Assembly (NCBI GenBank): GCA_017450425.1
Contig: JAFSUV010000069.1
Span: 1-26,965 of the forward strand
Direction: 5' to 3'
Origin: Kiritimatiellia bacterium
GTDB taxonomy: Bacteria; Verrucomicrobiota; Kiritimatiellia; RFP12; UBA3636
DNA: 26,965 bases
Shown here: in pieces, positions 3,201 through 8,545 of the stretch
Numbering within the stretch: position 1 is the stretch's first letter
Layout: every line of letters begins with the position of its first letter
The notes under the pieces: generated by a model
The model's input: only the letters and a program-made list of their open reading frames with translations
Told to the model about the DNA's origin: nothing
Database searches by the model: none
Made by a program: the position numbers and the translations under genes

Positions 3201-4161
3201 AATCCTCTCCACGCTCCCAAAGTGGGCGAATGCCACGCCGGACGCGATCATCGACTCGCCGGCGTTCGCAATGCCGTGCCGCCTTGGCGAGGAACCGGCC
3301 GTCATCCGCCCCGCGTCCGTGGCACCGGCGGCGGCGGAAACGCTGGCTCTTTCCGTGGCATTCGGCGACGAGCCTCACACGCTCGGCATTGCCCGTTCCC
3401 CGCGCTTTCCCGACCTCGACAAGCTCTGGGACGGCCGCGCCGACGTGCCTGAACCGATCCTGCTTGCCCTCGTCGAACGCGAGTGCGGGCCGCTTCTGCA
3501 ACTGCTCGAAAACGCCGTCAGGAAGCAGCTGCGGCTCGTGGGCATTTCACGCAGAGGCGCAGAGGAGGAGGAGGCGCGGAGCGATGGCACGGAGGACCCT
3601 TCCGGCATCGCTCTCTGTGTCGCCGCTCCTCGGCGCGAGGAAAACGACGCGCAGCCCATCTGTTTTTCGCTTACGCGAAGCGCCACCGTTGTCTCCGCGT
3701 TTGGCGCGCTCCGCAACCTCGACCTGGCGCACGAGTCGATCCGCTCGCAGACGCTTCAGTCCGAGGTTGAATACGCCGCCTTTGCGATGCCGGAAGCCGA
3801 CATCGCCGCCATCTCGCCCGGCGACGCGGTGATGCTCCCGGAAATCGGCTCGATCCAGCCGCGTCTCATAATCGACGGGCGGTTCGTCTGGGATGAGGGC
3901 GGCGTCGCGCCATACGGAGACGACGGAATGTGCCGCGTGCGCGGTGTCGAAGCAAAGGTGGTTTCGCTGGGCGAACTGTTCGATGCGGCAGGAGAGTTGA
4001 AAGTTGAAAAGTTGAAAGTTGAAAGTTATAAGGGTGAAGATTGCCGCGACGGACTTCAACTGCGGCTTCTTCGCAACGGCAAAGCCGTCGCCTCCGGCCG
4101 CTTCGGCCGCCTCGGCGACCATCCCGCACTCCTCGTTGAAAGTGAATTTGGCGGCCGATAG
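3187..4161 (+). CDS. sctQ: Divergent T3SS sorting-platform protein SctQ (YscQ/FliN SPOA family), 324 aa
   Basis: Lies between sctP and sctR. SPOA-like segments IAAISPGDAVML and LRLLRNGKAVASGRFGRLGDHPALLV. Purine-rich RBS AAAGGAAG precedes ATG 3184/3187. Similarity is weak, so the call rests partly on synteny. Confidence 0.65.
   Translation: MKPLEILSTLPKWANATPDAIIDSPAFAMPCRLGEEPAVIRPASVAPAAAETLALSVAFGDEPHTLGIARSPRFPDLDKLWDGRADVPEPILLALVERECGPLLQLLENAVRKQLRLVGISRRGAEEEEARSDGTEDPSGIALCVAAPRREENDAQPICFSLTRSATVVSAFGALRNLDLAHESIRSQTLQSEVEYAAFAMPEADIAAISPGDAVMLPEIGSIQPRLIIDGRFVWDEGGVAPYGDDGMCRVRGVEAKVVSLGELFDAAGELKVEKLKVESYKGEDCRDGLQLRLLRNGKAVASGRFGRLGDHPALLVESEFGGR
3549..3636. repeat. Degenerate octamer (RCGCAGAG) tract plus inverted copies inside sctQ
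   Basis: ACGCAGAG 3549, GCGCAGAG 3557, GCGCGGAG 3574, GCACGGAG 3587; reverse-type CTCTGTGT 3613 and CTCGGCGC 3629. Confidence 0.4.
3993..4028 (+). repeat. 36-nt in-frame AAAGTTG tandem repeat in sctQ (ELKVEKLKVESY)
   Basis: AGAGTTG-AAAGTTG-AAAAGTTG-AAAGTTG-AAAGTTA (7+7+8+7+7). AT-rich within a GC-rich gene. Confidence 0.85.
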
Positions 4162-4205: not shown

Positions 4206-4916
4206 ATGTTCCAGACAAACCCTTTCACTCTGATAGTCCTCTTCGTGGGACTGTCCCTGCTGCCGTTCGTGGCGATGATCGCGACGAGCTACCTCAAGAT
4301 CGTGGTCGTGATGTCGCTCATCCGCAATGCGCTCGGCATCCAGTCGATCCCGCCGAACATGGTGATCAACGCGCTCGCGATGATTCTCACGTTCTACATC
4401 ATGGCTCCGATGGCGAGCGAATCGTGGCAGATAATCGCCGAACGTCAAACGTCGAAAGTCGAAAGCCGGCAGGCCGCGAGCGGACAGGCGGAAGGCGCGG
4501 CAGGATCTGCGACCCTGGACCTTGGACTTTCGACCTCTGAATTCGCGGAAGCGGCCGAGCCGTTTCGCAGGTTTCTTTCGGAGCATACGTCCGTGCGCGA
4601 ACGGGCGTTCTTCGTCAACACGGCGGAAACGCTGTGGGGCAAAGACGGGGAACCGGCCGAGGTCGATCCGGAGAGCTTCTACATCCTTCTTCCGTCGTTC
4701 TGCGTGTCTGAGCTTACGAAAGCGTTTCAGATAGGCTTCCTCGTATATTTGCCGTTCATCGCGATCGACATCATCGTGTCGAACATCCTGCTCGCAATGG
4801 GCATGATGATGGTGTCGCCCGTCACGATATCGCTGCCGTTCAAGTTGCTCCTCTTCGTGATGGTGAACGGCTGGACGCTCCTTATCCAGGGTCTCGTGAG
4901 GGGGTACGCGATATGA
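4206..4916 (+). CDS. sctR: T3SS export apparatus subunit SctR (YscR/FliP family)
   Basis: LSLLPFVAMIATSYLKIVVVMSLIRNALGIQSIPPNMVINALA and YLPFIAIDIIVSNILLAMGMMMVSPVTISLPFKLLLFV are family hallmarks. There is no FliP-type N-terminal signal peptide. Confidence 0.97.
   Translation: MFQTNPFTLIVLFVGLSLLPFVAMIATSYLKIVVVMSLIRNALGIQSIPPNMVINALAMILTFYIMAPMASESWQIIAERQTSKVESRQAASGQAEGAAGSATLDLGLSTSEFAEAAEPFRRFLSEHTSVRERAFFVNTAETLWGKDGEPAEVDPESFYILLPSFCVSELTKAFQIGFLVYLPFIAIDIIVSNILLAMGMMMVSPVTISLPFKLLLFVMVNGWTLLIQGLVRGYAI
4440..4538. repeat. Inverted pair of heptamer tracts inside sctR (GAAAGTC-type / GACTTTC-type)
   Basis: GAACGTC-AAACGTC-GAAAGTC-GAAAGCC (4440-4467), a 43-nt spacer, then GACCCTG-GACCTTG-GACTTTC-GACCTCT (4511-4538). 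Total 99 nt. Confidence 0.7.
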
Positions 4917-5179
4917 GTCAGGCGCAGATACTCGACTATGCGAGGATGTGCCTCGTCATCGTGCTTCGGCTGTCGCTCATCCCGATAGTGGTGGCGACGG
5001 TCATCGGCATCCTTGTCTCGCTGCTGCAGGCGCTCACGCAAATTCAGGAGCAGACGCTTGGCTTTGCAGTGAAGCTCATCGCCATTTCGCTGACGCTTCT
5101 CGCCTGCGCCTCGTGGATGGGTTCGTCGCTCATGCTCTACACGCAGGACATCTTCAACAGCTTTGCGCTTCTGAGATAG
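4913..5179 (+). CDS. sctS: T3SS export apparatus subunit SctS (YscS/FliQ family)
   Basis: 88 aa, two hydrophobic helices, VATVIGILVSLLQALTQIQEQTLGFAVKL motif. ATGA overlap with sctR. Confidence 0.97.
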   Translation: MSQAQILDYARMCLVIVLRLSLIPIVVATVIGILVSLLQALTQIQEQTLGFAVKLIAISLTLLACASWMGSSLMLYTQDIFNSFALLR

Positions 5180-5182
5180 CGG

Positions 5183-6004
5183 ATGCCCTACGTTGAATTC
5201 CATCGATGGATCTTGGCGGCGGTCCTTGCCATGGCGAGGATCGGCGGGGCGTTCGCCATCTGCCCGGCGCTTGCGGATTCGATGATACCGGGCGTGGCGC
5301 GTCGGGCGGCGACGTTCGCCTTCGCGGTCATAGCGATCCCGTTCATCCACGCCGGGATGCCGCCCGGCGAACCGGTCGTGTGGGGCTTCGCCCTTCTCGC
5401 CCTCAAGGAGGCGCTGATCGGCTTCATGCTCGGCTTCTTCAGCGCAGTCCCGTTTTGGGTCGCGGAGAACGTGGGCAACTTCATCGACAACCAGCGCGGC
5501 GCGACGATGGGCGAAGTCTATTCGCCGCTTTCCGGCGCGCAGGTTTCGACGACGGGCATTTTCTTCACGCAGATCGTTTCGACGATCTTCTTCACTTCTG
5601 GCGCGGTGTTCCTGCTTCTCGCCGCGCTCTACAAGAGCTATGCCGTCTGGCCGGTCTTCCCCGCCCCCTCTGTTTCTCAGCTTTCAACTTTCAACTTTCC
5701 AACTTTCAACGTATCTTTCTCCCCCGACGCGCCGGTGCAGATTCTCGGAACGCTCGACGGAATGCTGAAGACGACGGTCGTCATCTCGGCGCCCGTCATC
5801 ATCGTGATGTTCCTTGCGACGATCGGCCTCGGGCTCGTCAACCGCACCGCGCCGCAGCTCAACGTCTTCTTCCTCTCGATGCCGGTCAAATCCGCCCTCG
5901 GCGTCGCCATGCTGATCCTCTACCTGCCCTTCATCATGGACATGCTCATGTACACCAGGGACGCCGCCATCCTCGACCCGGTGAGGAAGCTGCTGGGCGG
6001 GTAA
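5183..6004 (+). CDS. sctT: T3SS export apparatus subunit SctT (YscT/FliR family)
   Basis: KEALIGFMLG, GNFIDNQRGATM and GLVNRTAPQLNVFFLSMPVKS motifs; polytopic hydrophobic profile. Confidence 0.97.
   Translation: MPYVEFHRWILAAVLAMARIGGAFAICPALADSMIPGVARRAATFAFAVIAIPFIHAGMPPGEPVVWGFALLALKEALIGFMLGFFSAVPFWVAENVGNFIDNQRGATMGEVYSPLSGAQVSTTGIFFTQIVSTIFFTSGAVFLLLAALYKSYAVWPVFPAPSVSQLSTFNFPTFNVSFSPDAPVQILGTLDGMLKTTVVISAPVIIVMFLATIGLGLVNRTAPQLNVFFLSMPVKSALGVAMLILYLPFIMDMLMYTRDAAILDPVRKLLGG
5678..5713 (-). repeat. 36-nt in-frame CAACTTT tandem repeat in sctT (QLSTFNFPTFNV)
   Basis: CAGCTTT-CAACTTT-CAACTTT-CCAACTTT-CAACGTA (7+7+7+8+7). The core is the reverse complement of the sctQ AAAGTTG tract. Confidence 0.85.
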
Positions 6005-6152
6005 ACGAACCGAAGCGGATTCGATGGGAAAAATGGACAATCAAGATCAGGTCCGGGGCAGGGTTCGCCGCCAGAAGGAGCAGGATTTTCGCGCGGATCG
6101 GGTGCCGTGCGGGAAAAGCCAGGATTCCGGGCCGGCGCGATTTGAGCCGGAG

Positions 6153-6224
6153 GGTAGGACGAGCAGGACGGGTAGGACCAGCAGGACCAGCAGGACTGGT
6201 AGGACGAGCAGGACTGGTAGGACG
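6153..6224 (+). repeat. 9-nt tandem array 1: 8 units of RGYAGGACN
   Basis: ggtaggacg, agcaggacg, ggtaggacc, agcaggacc, agcaggact, ggtaggacg, agcaggact, ggtaggacg. Confidence 0.95.
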
Positions 6225-6245
6225 TTGCGCCGGCTTTTACCAGCC

Positions 6246-6407
6246 AGTCCTGCTTGTCCTACTCGTCTTACCAGTCCTGCTCGGCCTACCGGTCCTGCTT
6301 GTCCTACCGGTCCTGCTAGTCCTACCCGTCCTGCCGGTCCTACCCTTCCTGCTAGTCCTACCCGTCCTGCCGGTCCTACCGGTCCTGCTCGTCCTACCCT
6401 TCCTACC
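6246..6407 (-). repeat. 9-nt tandem array 2: 18 units of NGTCCTRCY, inverted relative to array 1
   Basis: Runs from agtcctgct (6246) to cttcctacc (6399-6407) in exact 9-nt register. Separated from array 1 by 21 nt. Confidence 0.95.
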
Positions 6408-6436
6408 CCTATCCCAAGCTGCGGAGGTGTTTGACG

Positions 6437-7129
6437 ATGGCCGAGATTCCCAAGATTGTCCTGCCGCATGGTGGCTACAAGAACCTCATCGTCTATCGCA
6501 AGAGCGATGTCGTCTATGAGGGGACTGTCGTGTTCTGCCGCCGGTTTCTTCCCGCCCATGGCGACCGCACGGTTGATCAGATGGTCCAGGCCGCGCGCTC
6601 GTGCAAGCAGAACATCGCGGAGGGCAGTTCGGCGTCAGGGGCGAGCAAGGAGACCGAGATCAAGCTCACCAACGTCGCGCGGGCGACGCTGGACGAGCTG
6701 ATGGAGGACTACCTCGACTACCTTAAGCGGAACGGACTCGCTGAATGGGAGGCCACCGACGAGCGTTCGCGCTATGCGCGCGCCTTCGCCAAAGGGCACA
6801 ACGACTGGAGCGGCTGGAAGGAGCTGTTCGAGACACGCCCTGCCGAGACTCTGGCCAATCTCATGCTGACGATATGCAACCAGACGAGTTACATGCTGGG
6901 GCGCATGATCGAGCGGCAGGAAGCGGACTTCAAGAAGTTCGGCGGCGTCCGCGAGCGCATGCACGCAGCCAGAACAGCCGCCAGGGCCGACGAATTCAAC
7001 AGAGGGCTTTACAGCCATCTTGCCGAGGCGAAGACGCCCGATGAATTGAACACCCGGGCCGAAAACCTGCGCCGCGAAATCAGCCGCATAGTCTGGGGCA
7101 TCGAGAGAAAGCGGGGTTGGCGGCAATGA
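6437..7129 (+). CDS. Four-helix-bundle protein with suffix domain (TIGR02436/TIGR04258 type; 23S-IVS-protein/Avd-like fold), 230 aa
   Basis: GGYKNLIVYRKS, FCRRFL, DRTVDQMVQAARSCKQNIAEGS, SKETEIKLTNVARATLDEL and suffix ANLMLTICNQTSYMLGRMIERQEADFKKFGGVRERM match the family pattern as recalled. GGAGG RBS at 6423-6427. Confidence 0.9.
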   Translation: MAEIPKIVLPHGGYKNLIVYRKSDVVYEGTVVFCRRFLPAHGDRTVDQMVQAARSCKQNIAEGSSASGASKETEIKLTNVARATLDELMEDYLDYLKRNGLAEWEATDERSRYARAFAKGHNDWSGWKELFETRPAETLANLMLTICNQTSYMLGRMIERQEADFKKFGGVRERMHAARTAARADEFNRGLYSHLAEAKTPDELNTRAENLRREISRIVWGIERKRGWRQ

Positions 7130-7142
7130 AGGGCGAAAAGAG

Positions 7143-7385
7143 AGCAGGCCTGGCAGGACGAGCGGGACCGGCAGGACCGGCAGGACTGGCAGGACCGGCA
7201 GGACTGGCAGGACTAGCAGGACGAGCAGGACTAGCAGGACGAGCAGGACGAGCGGGCCTGGCAGGACTGGCAGGACCGGCAGGACGAGCAGGACGAGCGG
7301 GACCGGCAGGACCGGCAGGACTAGCAGGACCGGCAGGACTAGCAGGACGAGCGGGCCTGGCAGGACTAGCAGGACGAGCAGGACC
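7143..7385 (+). repeat. 9-nt tandem array 3: 27 units of RGCRGGMCN
   Basis: 243 nt in exact 9-nt register, from agcaggcct (7143) to agcaggacc (7377-7385). Confidence 0.97.
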
Positions 7386-7393
7386 AACAGGGC

Positions 7394-7429
7394 TGTCCTA
7401 CACGTCCTACGCGTCCTACACGTCCTGCA
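7394..7429 (-). repeat. 9-nt tandem array 4: 4 units of YGTCCTRCR, inverted relative to array 3
   Basis: tgtcctaca, cgtcctacg, cgtcctaca, cgtcctgca. Ends 12 nt before the sctU RBS. Confidence 0.9.
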
Positions 7430-7453
7430 TTGCCCCCCCTCAGGAGGCTGCCC

Positions 7454-8545
7454 ATGGCTGAGTCTTCCGGCGAAAAGACCGAGATGCCGACCCCGAAGAA
7501 GCTGCGCGACGCGCGGCAGAAGGGGCAGGTGTGCACCAGCAAGGACATAGTCTCGACAGCAATCCTGATCGTCCTCTTCGCGCTTCTTGGCTGGATGGGC
7601 GTCGCGCTTGTCGATGACGGGGCCATGCTCCTCGACTACATCGGGGACAGGATGCGCGGCGATCCGTTCGACGCGACGCGTCCCGCCGCCGGCCTGACCG
7701 TCATGATCGTCTGCAAGTACTCGTTCATTTTCGTGCTGATTGCCGCCGTCATCGGGATCGCCGCCAATGTGGCGCAGATCGGGTTCCTCTTCACTTTCGA
7801 TCCGATCATCCCGAAGCTGGAGAAGCTCAATCCGGTGGAGGGTGCGAAAAAGATATTTTGCATGAAGAACCTCTTCGAGTTCTTCAAAAACGTCGTCAAG
7901 GTTTCGTTCCTCGGCTATCTAATCTACAAAATCATCTGGGCGAGCGTGCCGGAACTTCTCACGATGTGCTACGGCACGATCGACGACGTGTTCCCGAGTC
8001 TCAAGCTCATGCTGAAACGACTGGCGGTTTACACCGCCTTCGGCTACATCGTCATCGCCATCGTCGATCGCCTCTTCCAGGGGCGGAACTTCACCAAGCA
8101 GATGATGATGACGAAGGACGAGGTGAAGCGCGAATACAAGGAGATGGAAGGTTCGGGCGAGGTCAAACAGGCACAGCGCCAGTTCCGCGACGAAATCCTC
8201 AACGGCCCGGATCCGGCGAAGGCGGCGAAAAAGGCCAGCGTGGTCGTGACGAATCCGACGCGCCTTGCGGTCGGCATCCGCTACGACGCGGAGGAGGCGC
8301 CGCTGCCGCGCATTTGCGCCATGGGCGCGGGCAAGGTCGCCAAAATCATCCGCGAGACCGCGCTCGCCGAAGGCATCCCCGTCATGGAAGACCGCCCGCT
8401 CGCCCGCGCCCTCTACGCCAACGGGCGGCTCGAAGACTTCGTGCCGGAAGATTTTCTCGAACCCGTTTCCGAAGTTTTGAAATGGGCCAAGCGGCTCGAA
8501 GACGCCAGAAGGGAAGAGGAGGAACTCGACAATGTGCAGCTGTAG
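7454..8545 (+). CDS. sctU: T3SS export switch protein SctU (YscU/FlhB family), 363 aa
   Basis: SGEKTEMPTPKKLRDARQKGQV, MMMTKDEVKREYKEMEG and VVVTNPTRLAVGIRY motifs. AGGAGG RBS at 7442-7447 precedes ATG 7454. Confidence 0.97.
   Translation: MAESSGEKTEMPTPKKLRDARQKGQVCTSKDIVSTAILIVLFALLGWMGVALVDDGAMLLDYIGDRMRGDPFDATRPAAGLTVMIVCKYSFIFVLIAAVIGIAANVAQIGFLFTFDPIIPKLEKLNPVEGAKKIFCMKNLFEFFKNVVKVSFLGYLIYKIIWASVPELLTMCYGTIDDVFPSLKLMLKRLAVYTAFGYIVIAIVDRLFQGRNFTKQMMMTKDEVKREYKEMEGSGEVKQAQRQFRDEILNGPDPAKAAKKASVVVTNPTRLAVGIRYDAEEAPLPRICAMGAGKVAKIIRETALAEGIPVMEDRPLARALYANGRLEDFVPEDFLEPVSEVLKWAKRLEDARREEEELDNVQL

Follow-up and report, generated by a model that had tools for sequence, protein, structure and literature searches.

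The 26,965-nt stretch of a Kiritimatiellia genome analysed here (assembly GCA_017450425.1, contig JAFSUV010000069.1; below, the window) carries a gene for a 230-aa four-helix-bundle protein between the type III secretion genes sctT and sctU, and this gene is enclosed by inverted tandem arrays of a 9-nt unit. A comparison with homologous loci shows that this gene-plus-array architecture is the rule for the protein family and that each protein clade keeps its own unit. In relatives, gene-less arrays of the same unit are dispersed through the genome. In the window itself, the cassette is an insertion between sctT and sctU. The insert (positions 6005 to 7453; all coordinates are those of the whole window, forward strand) is probably a cassette of the intervening sequence (IVS) type, whose arms would fold once the operon is transcribed and would be the cognate partner of the encoded protein. 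Its logic would resemble that of the REPIN/RAYT systems, with no known enzyme.

The insert follows the TAA stop codon (6002 to 6004) of sctT (273 aa; 5183 to 6004; TIGR01401, 215 bits) and ends at the start of sctU (363 aa; 7454 to 8545; TIGR01404, 361.7 bits), both genes being on the plus strand, as are the arrays and the gene of the cassette. Based on NCBIfam equivalogs, sctR, sctS, and sctT lie 5' of the cassette and sctU lies 3' of it. The insert begins with a non-repeat leader of 148 nt (6005 to 6152). The array-to-array part (6153 to 7430) was delimited with Tandem Repeats Finder (TRF) and by checking the register directly. It starts with eight forward units of NNNAGGACN (6153 to 6224), in which GTAGGAC and GCAGGAC alternate, followed by a loop of 22 nt (6225 to 6246; register and folding) and 18 reverse units of GTCCTNNNN (6247 to 6408). 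The first part of this reverse array pairs with the array of eight, and the remainder can pair with the array downstream of the gene. The four-helix-bundle gene (6437 to 7129, from the ATG at 6437 to the TGA at 7129; TIGR04258 and TIGR02436) has its own Shine-Dalgarno sequence, GGAGG, at 6423 to 6427. Behind it come about 27 forward units of the GCAGGAC type with a 27-nt super-period (about 7143 to 7385), a loop of 8 nt (7387 to 7394), and four reverse units of GTCCTACNC (7395 to 7430). The repeat can be written as (AGCAGGACN)n. The original prediction had given this order of arrays and the 8-nt loop correctly, but the first spacer measures 22 nt and not 21. The exact 9-nt register that it claimed for the AGGAC core is also present, as all 31 AGGAC occurrences between 6001 and 7500, 30 of them inside the arrays, share one position modulo 9. 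AGGAC occurs in all eight units of the first array. The reverse array of 18 has exact GTCCT in 14 units and one-base variants in four, and the long forward array (26.9 copies according to TRF) has 22 exact AGGAC cores, the others being GGGAC or GGGCC variants. TRF scores range from 186 to 309, and the arms are 74 to 84% complementary across 74 to 168 nt.

Such arrays could in principle be coding sequence, for example for a collagen-like protein in the open reading frame (ORF) at 7117 to 7461, or the cassette could have been mis-assembled; we consider both hardly conceivable. Pfam Collagen indeed matches the array frame (E = 2e-16), and assemblies often break at the arrays. However, any GG-containing 9-nt repeat yields Gly-X-Y in one frame, the ORF starts at a TTG inside the upstream gene and has no Shine-Dalgarno sequence, and neither the reverse arrays nor homologous arrays with other units give a Gly-X-Y frame. 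The collagen-like frame was thus rejected as an artifact without a credible start, and apart from this spurious match the further ORFs in the cassette matched no Pfam or NCBIfam family. Mis-assembly was rejected because contigs of four gut-metagenome runs, from four different studies, independently bridge both junctions, joining sctT to the leader and the forward array on one side and the reverse array of four to sctU on the other.

That 6005 to 7453 is an insertion follows from five relatives in which sctT and sctU touch, overlap, or lie 35 nt apart. Four of these genomes belong to the genus of the window organism. In L084, L087, L091, and L092 the sctT stop and the sctU ATG are 1 to 5 nt apart or overlapping, and in L089 the gap is 35 nt, whereas in the window 1,449 nt separate codons that adjoin in these relatives. 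Contigs from co-occurring relatives in the same samples likewise join about 5955 to 5961 straight to about 7448 to 7453. The Shine-Dalgarno sequence of sctU lies inside the 3' end of sctT in the relatives with an empty site, whereas in the window the insert has brought a new one, AGGAGG, at 7442 to 7447, 11 nt past the last repeat. The cassette therefore does split two normally adjacent genes, as had been predicted, and it is not fixed at this site, a possibility that the original prediction had raised. In the SctU tree, which bears on the choice between one insertion and two, the cassette-bearing L133 stands outside a starred clade that holds the window together with the empty-site genomes G004 and G007. 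However, L133 is also the most identical sequence (88%), and the tree contains only a part of the G004 sequence and is arbitrarily rooted. In the congener G001, to which the L089 junction belongs, the 35-nt spacer is filled by a short CCACCCA remnant.

The link between gene and arrays is not restricted to the window. A protein search returned at least 7,700 homologues at E < 1e-5. Clusters that are 70 to 88% identical number in the hundreds. Their contigs mainly measure about 1 kb, a length that would result from breaks of the assemblies at the arrays. For members with the C-terminal suffix domain we used 80 loci from gut and rumen metagenome-assembled genomes (MAGs), mostly labelled Kiritimatiellia. 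Exact 5-mer recurrences in their flanks numbered 1,759 at period 9, compared to 88 to 292 at periods 6 to 12. Whether homologues lack flanking arrays can thus clearly be answered with no, as most of the 80 loci carry 9-nt hairpin arrays beside the gene. About 20 of them, including the window, have the layout forward-reverse, gene, forward-reverse; others are partial or have the order forward, gene, reverse. In local hairpins the GGGAC-type arm is always on the 5' side, and the four arrays of a locus have the same unit. This unit consists of NN, a clade-typical dinucleotide (GT, AA, CC/AC, CT, AT, or TT), and G-N-G-A-C, which is replaced by G-G-G-A-T in one clade. The G-N-G-A-C core is kept across proteins that are 45 to 88% identical.

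The first unit finder presupposed this core, and the test was repeated on unbiased TRF consensus units. GAC or GTC was found in 102 of 119 period-9 arrays, with a mean of 39 and a maximum of 54 after shuffling. The distribution of unit types agrees with the protein tree: it requires 25 label changes, compared to 47.7 when shuffled, and none of 200 shuffles gave a number as low. The original prediction had treated arrays and protein as one unit, and the association of the two runs through the whole family. The agreement between unit and tree would not by itself prove recognition, as linked inheritance alone would also produce it. The window cassette and the one in L133 differ by a dS of about 1.0, and both keep homogeneous GTAGGAC/GCAGGAC arrays, with 8, 18, 27, and 4 copies in the window and about 6, 5, 10, and 1 in L133. 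To judge from these sequences, such homogeneity argues for constraint.

Short, classical members of the family are also associated with arrays. We sampled TIGR02436 genes of 120 to 145 aa from relatives of the window genome and from genomes related to two MAGs labelled Planctomycetia and Alistipes. Inverted arrays of 6- to 8-nt units lie around them, with one unit per gene. Both flanks were available for 34 loci; 23 of these have an array in each flank, inverted in all cases, 11 have one on a single side, and none is without arrays. The flanks contain 3.56 arrays per kb, compared to 0.22 per kb elsewhere in the same loci. The published IVS of Coxiella burnetii conforms to this pattern. Tandem GACAGAT heptamers, two or three depending on the strain, stand in its 5' arm, and RNase III cleaves at the first of them (PMC4990558). 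The genome of the window has a second four-helix-bundle gene (C129, about 4250 to 5030, minus strand, locus L001; TIGR02436 at 34.9 bits and a weak suffix match of 36 bits), flanked by inverted CGGGATTT-type 8-mers and by direct repeats of about 90 nt that reach the contig end.

Arrays of the same units also occur apart from such genes. In the congener G001 (96% complete), GCG[GC]GAC nonamer arrays are present at at least 28 sites, only one of which (on C14) adjoins a suffix gene. A second paralogue (on C159) lies between arrays of CCTAGG+3 nonamers, and 12 more sites have this unit as well; a third unit is nearly confined to its gene. Altogether the six paralogues of this genome have six different units. 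In G054 an AGGGAC nonamer flanks the suffix gene on C223 and is found at at least nine other sites, with no four-helix-bundle gene within 1.5 kb of these. Reversed-pattern controls gave 0 sites in G001 and 0 to 5 per strand in a survey of 61 genomes. The assembly to which the window belongs is 56% complete, and one extra array was found there: a gene-less forward array on C50 (167 to 338) with about 19 units of the G[CT]AGGAC nonamer of the window cassette, located upstream of an apparent panD-like gene and without a reverse partner on the contig. TRF also reported an array on C174 of this genome, which was rejected as ordinary low-complexity coding sequence. Two gene-less nonamer hairpins of G001 (L186 on C89 and L189 on C12) follow very similar upstream sequences, which look by eye like the 3' ends of paralogous ORFs rich in Ala and Leu with hydrophobic segments. 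This suggests that arrays may be carried at or into ORF ends.

The window contains inverted heptamer tracts inside genes as well, with 4.6 copies of AGTTGAA in sctQ (3995 to 4038) and TCAACTT in sctT (5677 to 5710). They had been proposed to be protein-less relatives of such elements. This is plausible, since AGTTGAA also flanks classical four-helix-bundle genes in L149 and L152 and the sctT tract is missing in a related strain, where a contig has 24 unrelated bases between 5659 and 5726. In L188 the AGTTGAA unit abuts GGGAC arrays.

The gene is under strong purifying selection and encodes a working protein. Two comparisons gave dN/dS values of 0.084 and 0.13, the former at a dS of 1.0 with the cassette upstream of sctU in L133, and sctU itself gave 0.099. 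The protein matches TIGR04258, the suffix domain, with 68.4 bits (cut-off 40; residues 138 to 186, C-terminal to the bundle) and TIGR02436 with 31.4 bits (cut-off 24), whereas its PF05635 score of 30.6 bits is slightly below the gathering score of 33.8. By score it is thus a member of these NCBIfam families, the definitions of which are silent on function and on flanking repeats. The closest named homologue is called "four helix bundle (suffix domain-containing) protein". There are 56 invariant columns among 41 homologues that are 45 to 88% identical, mostly in residues 36 to 96. The family motif of helix 2, Q..R.A..S...NIAEG, is present: DQMVQAARSCKQNIAEG is invariant in the 41 homologues and aligns with the classical QxRRAxVSIPSNIAEG motif (PMC3936711) with an hhalign probability of 86.5% (E = 4.5e-6).

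The AlphaFold2 model of the protein has a mean pLDDT of 87.9. Its bundle comprises residues 12 to 164, helices 3 and 4 are separated by an insertion, and the C terminus bears an additional helical hairpin of 65 residues; the TIGR04258 region corresponds to helix 4 and the start of this hairpin. When the model was compared with 48,161 chains by VIA-align, Xcc0516 (2GSC) came first with Z 14.7 and a root mean square deviation of 1.7 Å over 111 of 113 residues, followed by BT_0352 (2RLD) with Z 13.0. These two also lead the Foldseek matches. Avd, the accessory protein of diversity-generating retroelements (DGRs), comes after them, with Z 11.5 for 4DWL and 11.8 for the DGR ribonucleoprotein 8UB7. 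Structure comparison thus recovered the S23p/Avd fold that had been proposed for the protein. HMMER searches of the Protein Data Bank sequences with a profile and with the single sequence gave no match even at E = 10, as the similarity to the solved Avd and S23p chains is too low. Xcc0516 is known as a homopentameric ring (Lin et al. 2006, as cited in PMC4990558), and the window protein probably forms a ring as well.

The arms are predicted to fold strongly. The upstream hairpin has a folding energy of -177.7 kcal/mol (z = -13.2 compared to shuffles). For the whole insert, both the minimum free energy and the centroid structure pair the distal part of the reverse array of 18 with the forward array of 27, so that the coding region becomes a loop like that of an IVS. 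The cassette is probably transcribed within the sct operon by read-through, because it has no recognizable promoter or terminator and lies inside the operon. A scan of the cassette gave no sigma-70 promoter-like site and one terminator-like site on the minus strand, not above chance, with a consensus that may not suit this phylum. In the transcript the arms would fold as two local hairpins, or as the long stem that loops out the coding region. This imperfect double-stranded RNA would be a likely substrate for RNase III, by analogy with the Coxiella 23S IVS. An RNase III gene is present in the window's own genome (on C137). After such a cut the four-helix-bundle mRNA would be released, sctRST and sctU would be on separate messages, and sctU would then be translated from the Shine-Dalgarno sequence of the insert. 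Finally, the protein would bind its own repeat unit both in cis and in trans; such binding is suggested by the conservation of the core throughout the subfamily, the separate unit of each paralogue, and the dispersal of gene-less arrays of that unit in the genome. Among the functions proposed in the original prediction, that of a selfish element whose protein would recognize its own repeats fits best.

Extending this, the suffix proteins may be trans-acting partners of genome-wide families of nonamer hairpin arrays. Each paralogue would bind the arrays of its own unit and perhaps spread or protect them, which would make a second, enzyme-less counterpart of RAYT-REPIN. We put this forward tentatively.

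Several observations weigh against the reading of the insert as an IVS-type cassette that acts at the RNA level. Sense and antisense arms have equal folding energy and G-U content (p = 0.19 to 0.7; 82 flanks of the suffix family and 30 classical cassettes), and therefore nothing points to selection on sense RNA rather than on DNA. All 24 sequencing runs that hold the sequence are DNA runs, and processing is therefore argued by analogy. As to mobility, no target-site duplication is visible at the insert borders, and we saw no recombinase, no near-identical copies at different sites, and no movement. The 148-nt leader, which is joined to sctT in contigs of all four bridging runs, has no significant match in its own genome or in the 80 homologous loci, and such a unique leader would fit the capture of a larger fragment as well as transposition. 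Some homologues (L100 and L129) have arrays on one side only or overlap with the next gene, and complete arms are thus not obligatory.

A serious rival explanation, although in our view an unlikely one, is a REPIN/RAYT-like system at the DNA level. The arrays would then be small non-autonomous mobile DNA elements that the protein recognizes and spreads or maintains on single-stranded or cruciform DNA, and RNA folding would be a by-product. The hairpin doublets of the gene's own unit on both sides, the dispersed gene-less hairpins of the same unit, with each paralogue of G001 having a unit family of its own, the constant 5' position of the GGGAC arm in hairpins, the homogeneity of the arrays at a dS of about 1, and the lack of asymmetry between the arms would all suit such a system. 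However, searches of Pfam and NCBIfam gave four-helix-bundle families only, with no HUH/Y1 or other known catalytic domain; the fold is all-helical, and its nearest structures are Xcc0516, BT_0352, and Avd. Moreover, transposition intermediates were not seen, in addition to the missing target duplications and identical copies, and the arrays are tandem repeats of variable length instead of fixed palindromes of 20 to 40 nt.

The position of the cassette in front of sctU suggests another possibility, already raised in the original prediction: a domesticated post-transcriptional module in which the hairpins and the binding protein gate the translation or stability of sctU and so switch the substrate specificity of the injectisome. 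In its favor, the only Shine-Dalgarno sequence for sctU comes from the insert, and both L133 and L134 have a cassette of this unit immediately 5' of sctU. The protein of this cassette, P0004, is 86% identical, and the same ECF sigma gene is present. The L133 cassette is 79% identical to that of the window at the nucleotide level, matching the 78% of sctU itself, as if it had been kept through long divergence. However, none of the 80 homologous loci adjoins sct genes, P0004 being the exception, and the nearest homologue (88% identity) is found inside a Wadjet-like operon. Furthermore, same-genus relatives with 80 to 86% identical SctU have a tight sctT-sctU junction without cassette, and in four other relatives the DNA 5' of sctU is unrelated. 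Since homologous cassettes stand in unrelated operons and close relatives run from sctT to sctU without one, the control module is weakened, and we consider it improbable. The cassette has no specific link to type III secretion. Other contexts include a tRNA-synthetase operon and a position between two oppositely oriented giant genes.

The upstream neighbors of P0004 are an SbcC-like ATPase and MmeI and not sctT; genes for an SbcC-like ATPase and an MmeI-type enzyme stand 5' of the cassette and sctU in L133 (1 to 3000) as well as in L134. The four-helix-bundle gene of L129 (1 to 6700) and L130 is part of an SbcC_Walker_B/DUF2397 (Wadjet-like) operon and shares 7 nt with the gene that follows. 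These ties of the gene to defence loci in close relatives may reflect recombination between cassettes at different loci. Because of the SbcC-like and MmeI neighbors near P0004 and the unrelated DNA in four relatives, the 5' side of sctU is a rearrangement hot spot in this gut Kiritimatiellia group. In L088 (1390 to 1500; G008), where sctU no longer adjoins sctT, about 12 AAACCATC-type 8-mers lie directly upstream of sctU. A different repeat family, with inverted copies of units of about 24 nt and a AGTCTACCGCG core, is located 3' of another homologue (L106, 4700 to 5100). The SctU of the window itself has NPTR as its autocleavage motif (residues about 266 to 269) instead of the usual NPTH. NPTR is also found in G007 and G050, and NPTH is present in the SctU of other relatives. 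The variant is thus a lineage trait, unrelated to the cassette.

The resemblance to Avd raises the question whether the protein could be an accessory that works in trans for a reverse transcriptase system, a DGR or other retroelement. Reverse transcription would then produce the arrays or make use of them. Not only do the Z values for 4DWL and 8UB7 point to Avd, but PF05635 is also the commonest accessory family near DGR reverse transcriptases (PMC10053308). However, these Z values are within the common range for helical bundles, and there is no pair of template and variable repeats. No transposase, integrase, or reverse transcriptase is encoded in the cassette, as stated in the original prediction. 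RVT_1 was found neither in the window's own assembly (G000) nor in the congeners G001, G004, and G007 (87 to 96% complete), and congeners without RVT_1 carry up to six four-helix-bundle genes and many arrays. Based on the lack of RVT_1 in the four genomes the link was rejected, and we regard it as very improbable.

Compared with known systems, the IVS-type cassette proposed here lacks the defining location of the 23S IVS and the defining enzyme of REPIN-RAYT. The protein family has a record in rRNA intervening sequences that goes back to the 1990s. With the IVS that encodes S23p in C. burnetii, the window cassette shares the protein family, a gene within inverted stem-forming arms that carry short tandem repeats, a sporadic distribution with empty sites, and the lack of a recombinase. 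It lies in an mRNA operon, at the sctT-sctU junction, and not in helix 9, 25, or 45 of the 23S rRNA. Its arms, doubled into two hairpins instead of forming one stem, are much longer, with 8, 18, 27, and 4 nonamers and a family-wide GAC core. Its protein carries the additional suffix domain and is under strong purifying selection. In Coxiella, by contrast, the ORF is in decay and apparently untranslated, and RNase III excises the element. Leptospira also has 23S rRNA intervening sequences with an ORF, according to work cited in PMC4990558. REPIN-RAYT systems (Bertels and Rainey 2011, PMC3116915) are similar in three respects. A gene present in one copy has hairpin doublets of its repeat on its flanks, hairpins of this sequence are also scattered by the dozens between other genes, and paralogues in one genome have different repeat families. 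Here, such dispersed hairpins without the gene were found in G001 and G054. They differ from the elements described here, in which a helical bundle without HUH/Y1 motifs is combined with tandem units of 6 to 9 nt instead of palindromes of 20 to 40 nt, with no transposition intermediates seen. Avd shares the four-helix-bundle fold and the Pfam family neighborhood, but the window protein comes without reverse transcriptase and template or variable repeats and has the additional C-terminal hairpin.

Short tandem arrays have also been described in the absence of a partner gene. Cyanobacterial short tandemly repeated repetitive (STRR) heptamers are a case of abundant intergenic heptamer repeats. 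In Xanthomonas and Nostoc, GGGNATC heptamer arrays have been read as G-quadruplex formers (PMC4692102). Like those studied here, they are short-unit tandem arrays (2 to 26 copies) between co-oriented genes and are transcribed, but ours are inverted pairs tied to a specific gene family. Members of the four-helix-bundle family wedged into cas operons have been noted (PMC3936711). In our literature search we found no link between this gene family and flanking tandem arrays.

The four-helix-bundle family is very large and includes solved structures, and it has no assigned function. The tie to a specific and easily synthesized repeat unit opens a direct bench test of the family, in terms of binding, processing by RNase III, and effects on neighboring genes. 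The link between arrays and genes may also account for the commonness of 6- to 9-nt tandem arrays between bacterial genes and for the breaking of metagenome assemblies around four-helix-bundle genes. For the biology of type III secretion, it means that the normally coupled sctT-sctU junction tolerates a structured insert of 1.4 kb. If the suffix proteins are indeed trans-acting partners of hairpin families, this would explain both the rRNA intervening sequences and the excess of 6- to 9-nt tandem repeats in many bacterial genomes.

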